A stretch of DNA of 33,645 nt, taken from assembly GCA_003614675.1 (NCBI GenBank), contig ML002403.1, forward strand, positions 1-33,645. The letters run 5' to 3'. This document shows positions 6,927 through 14,810 of the stretch, in pieces (the first letter of the stretch is position 1; every line of letters starts with the position of its first letter). The position numbers were made by a program, and so were the translations under genes. The stretch is from Dimargaris cristalligena (Eukaryota). The notes under the pieces are model-generated. The model saw nothing but the letters and a program-made list of their open reading frames with translations. It searched no databases and was not told the DNA's origin.

Positions 6927-7396
6927 GGTTAATCTATCCACCATTGCTTTGGAATCCCAATGATGCCATAATAAATATAGCCGCTTGGATCAAACTAGGT
7001 TAGGGGAATTTTTTAAACCATGGAATATAGCTGCTACAATTACTATTATCATTACAATTACCCCATGTTCCCTCGACTCCTCCTCTAGAGGAGGAGGGGA
7101 TGGTGCCATTTTCGCCACAGTTTAACTTGGGCCGCCGGGCACTAATTGGGGGGGGGTGGCCCGGGAGTATTGCGTGGCCCAGACAGACCACCATGCAGTA
7201 CAAGTGGCGGTGGTAAACATTGGCCACATTCCATTTACGCTAACCCGATAATTACGGGTTGGTATTTTTTCTGTAAAAAAATTTCCTTCGCTAATAAATT
7301 GGCTTCTTTACTCTCCATAACCTCATTAACCCTCACCCTCATTTCAGCTATACCTTCGCTGATCCCCCTCTTCTTTCAGCCCGCCCCTGAACCGCA

Positions 7397-8427
7397 ATGC
7401 CCTATTACGCCGTGCTATTGGGCCGCCGCCCCGGGATTTACGACAATTGGTAAGCATGGACTGTGTTAGCCCTACGCCTTTCTGGCCAACCCTCCCCCCC
7501 CACTTACCTAAATGCAACCCTCTAACCTAACACTTGGCCCTCCCTATTCATCACCCCCTTCTTGGGAGGGGTTTCTACTTTGACCCTTATTTACTATACT
7601 AGGTCCGACGCTCAAGCCCAAGTTTTTCGGTTCCCCGGTAACCAGTACCGGCGCTTCGAAGATTACTCTGACGCCGAAGATTATATGGAGGGTGTAGAAC
7701 CGCGTTTCATCGACCCGCCCATTCCTTTCTCTTCCTATTCCTCCCCCTATTCCTCTTAATATTCCTCTTCCTCGTCCCTCTCCGCTTCCTCGGATAGGCC
7801 TCCCATTAAAGTGAGCGTGCGCGGACAGGTTAGGGACCCCGGTGGTTCCGACGCAGTGGCCGGGATTGCAGTCTACTGGGGGCTCGATGACCCTCGTAAT
7901 GTCATGGAAAAATTACCCGGTCCCCATCAAACCATCCCTCGGGCCGAGCTGTGGGCCATTCTCCGGGCCCTCAATATCTACACCACCAGTCAGTATGCCA
8001 TCCGTTGCCTGACCGAATGGATAGCGACGTGGAGACGGAATGGCTGGCGGACTTTCTCGAACCAGGCAGTCGCCCACCAGGATATTATCCGTACCGTAGT
8101 CTGCCTCATTAGCCATCGCCCGGGCAAAGTGAACTTTGTAAGTATATCCCGTGATGCATTATGGCATGACTTAACATTGCCTATATGATACCCCTAAAAT
8201 ATGGCCTAGAAAGGGGGGGAGAGATGGTTCATGGTTGTTGCACCAACAAAGATTATTTATGTGTTATTACAGCTAATGGTTTGTCTTTTGTTATATTTGG
8301 GAATTTGGTATCATTGAATGGCTGGGGTCACTTTTAGATTCGGGTGATTAATCCACGGGGATTCCTGATTTTTCAACAGGCCGTCCTATTAGCCAAGCTC
8401 GCGGCCGCATCAGATGATATCCACTAG
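7397..8427 (+). pseudogene. RNase H1 paralogue (hybrid-binding domain + RNase H domain), catalytically degenerate, in-frame TAA at 7757-7759; exons 7397-7449, 7603-8137, 8338-8427
   Basis: N-terminus YYAVLLGRRPGIYDNW...YRRFEDYSDAEDYM is the hybrid-binding domain. AGIAVYWG..DPRN, RAELWAILRAL, WIATWRRNGWRT and HQDII are RNase H1 motifs. Introns have GTAAG donors and TAG acceptors. Whether this is a pseudogene or a pseudoenzyme is unresolved. Confidence 0.8.
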
Positions 8428-9200
8428 TGGTGACTAACGGCTCCTTGGACTATAGGTGGGCTACGGTATTAATATTATTTGGCAAGACCCGTTAAAGAGA
8501 GGCGAACAGCATCACCGACCTCCCCATACCTCACTGCCTACGGGTCGCAAAGGCATTATTCAATGACCGATATTTTACTCTCCATGATTATAACTCAATT
8601 TAGAATGAATCAATTGCAATAGCGCCATGGTTTATTTGCAAAAAGTGGTGTGGGTGAGAATTACCGGCACTGAAGAGAGGAGTCGCTAATGCTATTTTTT
8701 TTGCTAATCCCCGCCATCGATTTTTCCCGTCGCTGAAGGCCCAGTTTCCGAGGTAGAGAGAGCTCCTCACCCACCTGGACGGGGTGATGGTTAGTAGTAG
8801 TAGTGATAAAGGGGTTGCTATATGTATGGCTGACGCAGAAGCGAGGGAGGGAACCTGGCATCCTTCTGCCCCTATGTGTGGAACAGGCCCCGAAGAGAAT
8901 GCAGTGCCGGGTGGTTTACTTATGGTGGGAATAAGAAGTCCCAAAATAGTCGGAGTTACAAGGCCAGCGGAGCTTCCCAAGCTGGGAAAGGAAGAAAAAC
9001 AGGCAATATTCGGTGCCGGCTGGCCACTGAGGCGAGGGTAGAAGCGTAAAGGGTATCATAATACTCTACTTCTACTGCTATTATTACTACTACGGTTTAT
9101 TGTCCTTTGACCGCGCGCATTCCACCACCCGGCTCTTTTCTCTCCCACCTGCGGAATTACCCCGCTCTTCTGTCCTTCGGACTCATTCACTCTCTCCGCC

Positions 9201-12072: not shown

Positions 12073-13526
12073 TTAAGGGCTGGCTAGGCTTCGGAAAAGC
12101 AGCGATACCGACTCCCCGTTATGGGTCCGGCGAATCGCTTCGGCAAAGGTAGTGGACACGTCAATCACGTCAATCTTGGCGCAGAGACGCCGCTTCTCGT
12201 CTTGCGGCACGGTATTGGTGGTGGCGAAGCGACAAATGGGGGAGTTATTGAGGATATCAATGGCAGGCCCCGAAAGCAGTCCATGGGTGACAATGCCGTA
12301 GATCTGGGTGGCCCCGTGTTGCTGGAGAACCTCGGCGGCCAGGCCCACGGTTCCGAAGGTATCGGCCATGTCGTCGATGATAATGGCCACCTTGCCCTTG
12401 ACGTCGCCCACTAGGCCCATTCCGACGCGGGAGCCGGGCTTGCTCTCCTTATGGATAAGGGCGAAATCGAGCCTCAGCTTATTGCAAATGGAGGTCGCCC
12501 TAGGTGCATGCAATACAATAGGCGGGGTGGTTTTAGTAAGGGGTCAGGGGGTATAGAGTATTCTGAGCCATGGGGGCCAGTGAGGAAGAACCCCGCGGCT
12601 ACTTTGTGAGGGACGGATAACCTACCGTTTGGCACCGCCGGCATCGGGGGAAACAATCACCGCCCGTTCGTATCCGGGAATCTCGGACACAATGTACTGA
12701 ATGATGGAAGGTTCGGCGTAAATTTGATCGACGGGGATGTCAAAGTAGCCCTGGAACTGCGGGTCGTGCAAGTCCATGGTGATGATATGGTCCGCGCCTG
12801 ATAAGGGAAGGGAAGGGAAGGAAAGCAGCAGAGCCAAAAAAATAAGAATCATCAATATTAGAGAGGGAGGGGGGATGGGATTACAGGGACCCGTCTAAAA
12901 TCAAACCCTCCAAGGTTATCCTGGGGCGAATGGTTTCCCGCTAGCAATATAAACTTACCGGCGGCGGTCAGCATGTTGGCGATTAAGGTACCCGAGCGGG
13001 CGACCCAGTGACGATAACCCTTGCTATCGGCATTGACAAAGTAGCTCTGGGCCATGGGGGATAGGGGCGGGCAAATGGCCTCTTCCCGTGGGGTACCGCA
13101 CGGCAGCCCGTCGGACAGGAAGCTTTCGCGGCGGGGCTCTTCAGCGGGCGAGGGCAGGGCCGAGTTGCCCTCCAGGGACTTCATGATGACCTGGGCCACG
13201 CGGTCCTTGCGGTTGCTGTTGTAGGGTACGTCGGCCTGGCGGGAGTAGGGGAAGCACGGCAGCACCACACTCACTCGCTTGGCACTGGCGGTCTTGCAGG
13301 CGGCGATCATGATGAGCAGCTCCATGAAGTTGTCGTTGACTTTGCCACAGGCCGACTGGATAATGTAGACGTGCTGGTCACGCACCGACTCTTTAATCTC
13401 GACGTTCGTCTCCATGTTGGAGAACTTTTTGAGGTTGACCTGGCCTAGAGCGATACCGAGGCGCTCGCAGACGGCCTGGGCCAGAGGCAAATTGGACGAG
13501 CCCGAGAAGACCTTGATATTACGCAT
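12073..13526 (-). CDS. PRS5: Ribose-phosphate pyrophosphokinase, Prs5-like with non-homologous insertion (388 aa); exons 13526-12959, 12797-12626, 12499-12073
   Basis: [75 protein letters not shown]. The three exons join in frame. Confidence 0.93.
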
Positions 13527-14810
13527 AGTAGTAGGGGAGAAAGGGAACAAGGAAATCCAATGGGGCAAAACCAACAACAATGTGTATAGCGTAAAAAAAA
13601 TTGGGAGAGGGCAATGGAGAAAGTTGGGAGTCGGTGGGGGGGAGGGAGCAAGTAGTGGTGGCTTCCCTCCTCAAGAGGCCCCCTCTTTCCTTTAGGTGGG
13701 ACTAGCCGAGTCTCTCTCTCTCTCTGCCCTCTCTCGCTTTGGAGAAAGAGGGGCTGGCGGTAGGAGGGTATATAGATTGAGAGAGAGAGAGAGAGAGAGA
13801 GGTATTATATAGCCCTCTAACCTTACTGAAAACCCTCTAACTTTGCCAGTAGGGGAGGTGTGGTACAGAGTTTCGGAATACACACTCCTCCTAGGCTGGA
13901 GGAAAGTGGCGGTCATCGGTATCGTTTGGGCTATGCTAGTTAAGTTGTCTACTTTTTAACCCTTAGGAGGATGGGGGCGCCTGGGTTTCTCGGTTGTACA
14001 TGGCCCACCCCGCCTCGCAAGTTCCACTGGCTGGAAATAATGCCGGGGGATATTGGATGGCTTCAATGGCGTATCCGAGAAGGGTGCTATGTATCCCGGA
14101 AGGAACCCATCTCCCGAAGTCGCCGTTTATTGCAAACCACCAATGGCCACGTATACTTCTCCCCACGGGGCTAGTGGAAACGCGCTTCCGGGAATGGAGT
14201 GCGAAAACGATGTCACATATCTATGTTGGTCGGGGAATGTCCATTAGATTCCGAATAAACCTGCCTACCGATAAAAAGGCATTATTTGATATGGGAGAAG
14301 TTCATCCAAGCTGTATAACGAAAAATCCATTAGATTCGGCCAATATTACTAGTTAAAAATACATTTCCCGTATATTTTCCCATACACGTATAATGGAAAC
14401 CCTTATATAGCTGGGCCGAATTTCACCCATATTCAATGGCCGAGTTTGACATTTTGGGTCTAGTTGGCCAGTGGAATAAAGACCCCCTCTCCCTCCCCCT
14501 ACCCTAAAAATACTACGGTAAGGCAAAATCCACTCCCATCGCGGGACATTTTCTACCACCCTAACTTTCTCTAAACATCTCTAACTAAAAGCAAAAGTAG
14601 TACTAGTGGGTTATTGCGGGGGAGGAGTTGGCCAGGAGGGAGGAATGGGCTGGCTGATCTCACCAACTCCAACTAAATGTAGCTATGAACCAATCAACCA
14701 AATAGCTTCGTTCTTCCCCATTCCGTTTGGATCCCTAACCAGCATTCCTGCCGCATCTCCCCTGTTCTGTACTACTCTACGCAGCCGCCTCTTCTATAGT
14801 TGCATTCACC

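Follow-up and report, generated by a model that had tools for sequence, protein, structure and literature searches.

Canonical eukaryotic RNase H1, as represented by the human enzyme RNASEH1 (2qk9, 2qkk, and 6vrd) and its fungal counterparts, follows a single plan in which a hybrid-binding domain (HBD) is joined by a flexible linker to an RNase H domain that carries a basic protrusion. Within the RNase H fold, two-metal catalysis depends on a cluster of carboxylates, which in the RNase H1 enzyme is D-E-D-D, and a loop histidine (the His-264 equivalent) aids product release. For the detection of R-loops, laboratories routinely use RNase H1 that has been made catalytically dead. Here, we analyzed a gene of this plan from Dimargaris cristalligena, which occupies positions 7397..8427 of the forward strand of a 33,645-nucleotide stretch of DNA (GenBank assembly GCA_003614675.1, contig ML002403.1, positions 1 to 33,645); from here on, this whole stretch will be referred to as the window. 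At the four catalytic carboxylates, the window gene reads R-E-T-V, and its two orthologues from the genus Dispira read R-E-I/V-I. The gene fails to qualify as an RNase H1 enzyme on its carboxylates, keeps the architecture and the fold and, judged by its sequence, is a naturally selected non-catalytic RNase H1. The explanation that we favor overall, with a probability of about 0.6, is that the gene belongs to a long-selected, non-cutting clade derived from RNase H1 and that the copy in the window has been disabled by a TAA codon in its linker.

When the five active-site positions of RNase H1 are read in order, the canonical D-E-D-H-D becomes R-E-T-P-V in the window, as the following codons show.

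7820-7822, forward strand: CGC, Arg in place of the first catalytic Asp (VSVRG), from the sequence
7946-7948, forward strand: GAG, the Glu of RAEL, kept, from the sequence
7985-7987, forward strand: ACC, Thr in place of the second Asp (IYTTS), from the sequence and the PDB alignment
8353-8355, forward strand: CCA, Pro in place of the loop His, from the sequence of exon 3
8383-8385, forward strand: GTC, Val in place of the last Asp, from the sequence of exon 3

An earlier note on this DNA had claimed that the first, second, and last Asp are lost, that the His of the HSG loop is gone, and that the Glu of RAEL is the sole remaining catalytic acid, and the codons bear this out on each count. It was also correct that two of the three Asp changes need two substitutions each (Asp to Arg two, Asp to Thr two, and Asp to Val one), and the Trp-rich basic protrusion that the note had described as kept is present (WIATWRRNGWRT). 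Because IYTTS of the window aligns on LYTNS of the D210N chains (2qk9), residues can be given their numbers in human RNase H1. For comparison, we used 180 RNase H domains, drawn from the 150 top-ranking representatives in an exhaustive HMMER search and from the matches of a second search. D-E-D-H-D was read in 154 of the 180; a further 15 were truncated at one or more of the columns and otherwise canonical, and 11 were substituted, three of these being the window gene and its two Dispira orthologues. Gly-146, Thr-181, Arg-184, Ala-185, Glu-186, Ser-211, Trp-221, Trp-225, Trp-230, and the equivalents of Tyr-213 and Asp-243 are kept in all three proteins, and Asn-240 is retained in Dispira, with His at this position in the window. 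Asp-145 (to Arg), Asp-210, Gly-263, Gly-269, and Asp-274 are replaced in all three, as is Gln-183, which reads Pro in the alignment rows. Thus, compared with canonical RNase H1, the clade keeps only the Glu of D-E-D-D, has Pro for the loop His (His-264), and has replaced Asn-151 (Pro or His), Asn-182 (Ile), and Asn-270 (Phe or Tyr) in all three species; two of the Asn residues so replaced are 97-99% conserved among intact domains. That the protein might still be a nuclease with a rearranged active site is scarcely credible. One carboxylate, the Glu, is indeed kept in all three proteins, but Arg, Thr/Ile/Val, and Val/Ile now occupy three of the four metal-ligand positions and Pro occupies that of the loop His. 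None of the highly conserved columns has gained an acidic residue that could compensate, and two-metal catalysis in the RNase H fold requires the carboxylate cluster.

The substitutions do not fall evenly over the substrate-binding surface known from the human co-crystal structure, in which we assign Arg-179, Thr-181, and Asn-240 to the phosphate-binding pocket and Asn-151, Asn-182, and Gln-183 to contacts with the 2'-OH groups of the RNA. Two articles (PMC8960830 and PMC4132731) describe a Trp of the basic protrusion (Trp-221) that stacks on a deoxyribose, a phosphate-binding pocket that selects the DNA strand by deforming it, and a catalytic domain that reads four successive RNA 2'-OH groups. 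If the roles that we assign to these residues hold, the clade would have kept the face that meets the DNA strand and dismantled the face that meets the RNA strand and the metals.

The architecture of the gene around these positions is as follows.

7397..7449, forward strand: exon 1, with the start codon and the first 17.7 codons of the HBD (MPYYAVLLGRRPGIYDNW); a Trp codon is split by intron 1
7450..7602, forward strand: intron 1, 153 nt, GTAAGC...TAG
7603..8137, forward strand: exon 2, with the remainder of the HBD, the linker, and part of the RNase H-like domain
7603..7690, forward strand: remainder of the HBD, to ...AEDYME (Pfam Cauli_VI)
7691..7807, forward strand: Ser/Pro/Tyr-rich linker in the frame of the gene, which aligns to the Dispira linker
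7757..7759, forward strand: in-frame TAA in the linker, codon 70 (sequence and DNA read sets)
7808..8137, forward strand: RNase H-like domain from strand 1 to strand 5, with the basic protrusion (Pfam RNase_H and PDB alignment)
Between AAT 7973-7975 and ATC 7976-7978, forward strand: deletion of about 10 residues (alignment)
8138..8337, forward strand: intron 2, 200 nt, GTAAGT...TAG, with a junction that is gap-free and collinear against the Dispira orthologues
8338..8427, forward strand: exon 3, the last helix of the domain, with the stop codon TAG at 8425-8427

Both introns that had been described as kept have GT..AG ends. Exon 1 is also used by the public gene model P0335, and the spliced reading of exons 1 and 2 is collinear with both Dispira orthologues. 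Once intron 1 is removed, Pfam Cauli_VI covers 44 of 44 profile positions (1.1e-15 on the 185-residue protein P0335, against 8.7e-5 on the exon-2 part alone), and the HBD is thus intact, as had been claimed. Pfam RNase_H matches the exon-2 translation at 3.9e-10 and P0335 at 4.7e-10, and the best matches among solved structures are human RNase H1 chains (8swb_A, 1.8e-12; 2qk9_A, 1.9e-12). Exon 3 aligns without gaps, and the same final His ends the window protein and both Dispira proteins.

The exhaustive HMMER search returned only two matches below 1e-30, namely the window's own fragment and P0002, a 232-residue protein of Dispira parvispora that was 59% identical over the domain in that search. 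A second protein of 232 residues, P0151 from Dispira simplex, is 84% identical to P0002. Both are uninterrupted protein models in which both Pfam domains are present, and their five-column patterns are R-E-I-P-I (P0002) and R-E-V-P-I (P0151). The two Dispira genes bear the source tags IWQ62_004670 and IWQ61_002995. When a profile of the three proteins was run against 2806 candidates, no further member of the clade was found, the next match being a canonical enzyme at 1.4e-47. In a FastTree phylogeny of 178 rows, the three sequences form one clade with an SH-like support of 100, in which the end branch of the window measures 0.53 and those of Dispira about 0.44 (derived from path lengths). The RNase H domain is collinear across the three proteins except for the 10-residue deletion in the window. 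All three share an Arg at the first site and a Pro where the loop His would be; before RAEL they read Ile-Pro rather than Asn-Gln, and the last Asp has given way to a hydrophobic residue. The second Asp position is variable (Thr, Ile, and Val). Because this dead-site pattern is shared, the loss of catalysis predates the split of Dimargaris and Dispira. Intact DEDD in close relatives, which the earlier note had named as evidence against its proposal, is not what we found, both Dispira orthologues being dead-site proteins. We conclude that the locus is, by these sequence comparisons, the D. cristalligena orthologue of a small clade derived from RNase H1 and so far known only from fungi of the Dimargaritales type.

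Searches for RNase H1 that passed through a shared-word prefilter gave 26 matches among 482 candidates, none of them from Dimargaris or Dispira besides the two dead proteins. With a threshold of E<=1e-20, the best 120 of 831 matches were mostly from Ascomycota, where named, and none was from Dimargaris or Dispira. A set of 65 matches among 2806 candidates likewise held no intact RNH1 from the two genera; given the prefilter and the limits on the matches listed, all three results say nothing either way about its presence. Of ten of the nearest canonical sequences, nine were metagenome or run-assembly proteins and one was a crustacean protein. We also note that P0013 and P0015, which are among the intact RNase H1 proteins closest to the dead domain of the window (50% identity), have an HBD and read D-E-D-H-D; both come from run assemblies, P0015 occurring on 5 contigs.

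The fold was examined with an AlphaFold2 model of P0002 (68-row alignment), which had a mean pLDDT of 89.6, with the linker below 70, and displayed the strand and helix order of RNase H. The best Foldseek matches of this model were human RNase H1 chains on hybrids (2qkk_F, E=1.8e-12), and 6vrd_A gave a target-normalised TM-score of 0.91 with an rmsd of 1.6. AlphaFold2 models lean on the canonical sequences in their alignment, and these figures bear on the predicted fold rather than on stability or on the effect of the 10-residue deletion.

Selection on the dead domain was judged by three tests at the protein level. For the first, region boundaries were chosen in P0002 coordinates (HBD 1-46, linker 47-81, and RNase H domain 82-232), and identities were counted as follows.

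D. parvispora versus D. simplex: dead domain 137/151 (90.7%), HBD 38/46, linker 20/35 (57%); Fisher test of domain versus linker, p=1e-5
Window versus P0002: dead domain 77/141 (54.6%), HBD 17/45, linker 6/34 (17.6%); Fisher test of domain versus linker, p=1e-4

Even divergence across the regions would be expected of a gene in neutral decay; here, no part of the protein is as well conserved as the dead RNase H domain. Further, columns that are identical between the window and Dispira are more conserved in the 154 intact domains (mean 0.667 versus 0.501; Mann-Whitney p=3e-4, 124 columns), and the same test gave p=6e-4 with P0151 and p=0.03 for the Dispira pair. Third, when the DNA of the window domain was allowed to diverge neutrally to 55% identity, it stayed free of stop codons in 4.5% of 1000 runs and acquired a mean of 3.0 stops; for the Dispira pair, this simulation is powerless, with a probability of no stop of 0.50. 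Taken together, the region, site-pattern, and simulation tests indicate purifying selection on a non-catalytic domain. It could be argued that the whole clade is an ordinary decaying duplicate without function, whose shared substitutions are old damage, inasmuch as only one of the five active-site positions (and one of the four catalytic acids) survives, the copy in the window is marked by a stop and a deletion, and the clade is known from only three species. We consider this very improbable, since the domain is 90.7% identical against 57% for the linker between species and 55% against 18-24% between genera, conservation tracks the conserved columns of the canonical family, and both Dispira models are uninterrupted 232-residue proteins. 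As we read these comparisons, the clade is a selected pseudoenzyme that has lost its catalytic residues and retained its fold.

The long selection on a non-catalytic protein that the earlier note had proposed thus stands for the gene lineage, on the strength of the orthologues and the conservation tests, and does not stand for the window copy, which carries the in-frame TAA. The note had described the reading frame as preserved; in fact, TAA stands in frame at 7757-7759, after codon 69 of the 225-codon reading. Contigs over 7300-8500 from four of four DNA runs (two studies and at most three samples) were identical to the window, with no other letters, no gaps, and word depths of 17 to 187. Set against canonical RNase H1, the window copy has this stop in its linker and is short of about 10 residues that, in the orthologues as well, lie between the end of helix A and strand 4; the deletion had been overlooked in the first reading. 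The linker itself, of 35 residues in Dispira by the boundaries that we chose, is identical at only 6/34 to 8/34 positions between the window and the Dispira proteins. We observed that, at 7745-7780, the linker holds three consecutive 12-nt units, which start with TATTCCTC and end in CCCC, TTAA, and TTCC. The stop lies in this short tandem repeat, since TAA is the fourth codon of the middle unit. Reassignment of TAA as a sense codon was considered and ruled out: the S-adenosylhomocysteine (AdoHcy) hydrolase open reading frame in the window ends in ...HYRY, the usual C terminus of that family, and TAA closes the frame right after it. TAA ends 5 of 11 Pfam-supported frames in the window, some of which may end at exon ends and not at true termini.

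Downstream of the TAA, no second stop or frameshift was found among the 139 codons tested. In relative-rate counts with 9 outgroups, the window domain had 7-13 unique changes against 10-16 for Dispira (p=0.13 to 1.0) and displayed no rate acceleration with any of the nine. A disabling mutation in the coding frame is present, but the near-neutral evolution expected of a disabled sequence was not seen in these counts. Because the downstream domain is undecayed, either the TAA arose very recently on the time scale of the clade or the domain continues to be produced, by way of an atypical intron or readthrough. We put truncation or recent disabling of the window copy at rather better than even odds. 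The most likely product, as predicted from the sequence of such a message, would be a 69-residue peptide that holds the HBD only; in the case of such a truncation, an exon junction would lie 380 nt downstream of the premature stop, and the message is likely to be unstable.

Several observations weigh against the reading that we favor and are best considered together. That two Asn residues with 97-99% conservation are lost, and the neighboring Gln with them, speaks against a dead domain that simply recognises hybrids by itself. The sequences of the Dispira proteins come from gene prediction, in which stops could be hidden by predicted introns, and the four DNA runs may all stem from one source strain. 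The absence of relaxed constraint in the window domain would be expected if the domain were still made and is as compatible with an intron or with readthrough as it is with a very recent stop. Finally, a public annotation of a D. cristalligena assembly holds P0335, which equals the window exactly with exons 7397-7449, 7603-7691, 7812-8137, and 8338-8427, and the AlphaFold2 model of this 185-residue protein has a pLDDT of 93.6 and a pTM of 0.82. On a reading that follows P0335, the window copy would still be functional, the TAA-bearing part of the linker being a third, in-frame intron of 120 nt whose removal joins the HBD directly to the dead domain. The introns that bear on this proposal are given below.

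7692..7811, forward strand: candidate intron, 120 nt, GTGTAG...AAAG, assumed by P0335, which would remove the TAA
12958-12798, reverse strand: intron of the PRPP synthetase gene, GTAAGT..CAG, by collinearity with human PRPS1 chains
12625-12500, reverse strand: intron of the PRPP synthetase gene, GTAGGT..TAG, by collinearity with human PRPS1 chains

The candidate sequence is 74% pyrimidine, and the intron would account for a dead domain that evolves no faster than that of Dispira and has no further stop or frameshift. P0335 is, however, not independent evidence, because gene predictors add introns of this kind to dodge stops. The candidate donor (GTGTAG) has no G at +5 and the candidate acceptor is AAG, whereas the four homology-verified introns of the window, two in the RNase H1-like gene and two in the PRPP synthetase gene, where they were placed by collinearity with human PRPS1 chains, have the donors GTAAGC, GTAAGT, GTAAGT, and GTAGGT and the acceptors TAG, TAG, CAG, and TAG. 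None of the 7 GT sites in exon 2 upstream of the TAA is a GTAAG-type donor, and counts of donor hexamers across the window were uninformative on the candidate. In addition, splicing would remove coding sequence, because D-R-P-P-I-K, encoded at the 3' end of the candidate, is the homologue of the D-G-P-I-L-K found where strand 1 starts in Dispira, and the Dispira proteins retain a translated linker of 35 residues. We note that the P0335 model has a shorter helix A (89-99, against 126-139 in P0002) and a shorter strand 4 (103-105, against 148-152 in P0002). An intron at 7692-7811 is thus possible but atypical, and we lean clearly away from a functional window copy made through it. With respect to the annotation of this locus, the two public models disagree and neither displays the stop: P0001, of 115 residues, is a 5'-partial fragment (window 7841-8185) that reads into intron 2, and P0335 contains what looks like an invented intron. 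Both hide a stop that is borne by the DNA, which should serve as a warning to users of these models. The PRPP synthetase gene itself (12073-13670, reverse strand), in addition to its two introns, has a long insertion after the conserved ...PCFPYSRQA motif.

Alternatively, a full-length protein of 225 residues could be made by translational readthrough of the TAA, with the linker still translated. The frame of the gene is kept on either side of the single stop and the downstream domain is undecayed, as this proposal would require, but TAA serves as an ordinary stop in the same window (at the end of the AdoHcy hydrolase frame) and we identified no readthrough signal. That the linker frame is open is uninformative, given that at most one stop occurred in 84% of 5000 shuffles of the same 120 bases. 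We regard readthrough as improbable, more so than the intron.

We therefore retain, as the best explanation, a long-selected, non-cutting clade with a window copy disabled by its linker TAA, for which the following course of events can be proposed. The common ancestor of Dimargaris and Dispira would have replaced the metal-binding residues, the first Asp by Arg, the second by a small or hydrophobic residue, and the last by Val or Ile, with the loop His giving way to Pro, and would have replaced two Asn and one Gln beside the active site as well. The clade has retained its N-terminal HBD and the fold of RNase H, together with the Trp-rich basic protrusion; Dispira has also retained the residues that we assign to the phosphate pocket, which recognise the DNA strand. 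The dead domain would have been under purifying selection since then. Because its metal-binding residues are replaced, the clade protein is predicted to be unable to cut. It would most likely act as a metal-independent binder of RNA:DNA hybrids or of other DNA-containing duplexes, in which the HBD might supply the recognition of the hybrid and the dead domain the contacts to the DNA strand, through its protrusion and pocket. The invariant Arg may neutralise the retained Glu or replace the metal in contacting a backbone phosphate. In the genome of the window, the TAA in the linker would represent the recent disabling of this long-conserved gene. A tentative extension, which we consider unlikely, is that the Dimargaritales hold a dedicated natural reader of RNA:DNA hybrids or DNA-containing duplexes, which does not cut, has Arg in place of metal, has discarded the Asn and Gln residues that read RNA, and may be the sole RNase H1 homologue left; were it the sole homologue, the removal of hybrids would rely on RNase H2 alone.

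The surroundings of the gene in the window are ordinary. Its neighbors are genes for AdoHcy hydrolase, Dad3, a DCN1-like protein, PRPP synthetase, mitochondrial ribosomal protein L20, argininosuccinate synthase, synaptobrevin, and NUDE, all of them housekeeping genes. An origin from a retroelement was ruled out by the presence of the HBD, by cellular RNase H1 as the best matches, and by these neighbors. On the reverse strand, we noted an open frame of 122 codons (7544-7912) that runs opposite to the linker and the first part of the RNase H domain and is rich in Gly and Arg as the mirror of the pyrimidine-rich linker.

If the interpretation that we favor is true, cells put the RNase H1 scaffold to use in reading nucleic-acid duplexes and not in cutting them, and the clade would offer a ready-made, metal-independent binding module. 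Interest is limited by the fact that the clade is known from three species of an obscure order and that the gene is interrupted in the genome examined. Full-text searches gave no published description of a natural dead RNase H1 pseudoenzyme, and the Arabidopsis RNH1 preprint (10.1101/662080) retained DEDD-complete sequences only; a natural non-cutting RNase H1 thus appears to be an undescribed phenomenon.

The closest comparison is with RNase H1 made dead in the laboratory. D210N chains have been crystallised on RNA:DNA hybrids, according to the titles of the entries, and binding without cutting of this kind may, by analogy, be what the clade does. In the laboratory proteins, one residue is changed and all substrate contacts are kept, including the two Asn residues that are replaced in the clade. 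In the natural clade, unlike in these mutants, the whole active site and the RNA-strand face have been rebuilt, with an Arg in the metal site; because of this rebuilding, the binding specificity of the clade may differ from that of dead RNase H1. Other degenerate domains of the RNase H1 type also occur. P0074 from Gonapodya prolifera (H-A-N-F-V) is a single-domain protein with no HBD; in P0007 (Terramyces sp.) and P0005 (Ancora sagittata), the first of the tandem domains is dead and an intact domain lies alongside; and P0008 and P0003 have RNase H1-type domains with substituted catalytic columns. These do not group with the clade, none of them falling in the 17-tip subtree around it, and their sequences suggest a recurrent natural loss of catalysis in the RNase H1 fold. 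The connection domain of retroviral reverse transcriptase is likewise an RNase H fold that has lost its acidic residues and makes non-catalytic contacts to nucleic acid. It is, however, part of a retroelement polyprotein and has no HBD, whereas the clade gene lies among housekeeping genes and is closest to cellular RNase H1. If the tentative extension given above is true, the clade, together with the Gonapodya and tandem-domain cases, would make up an undescribed recurrent class of pseudoenzymes derived from RNase H1.

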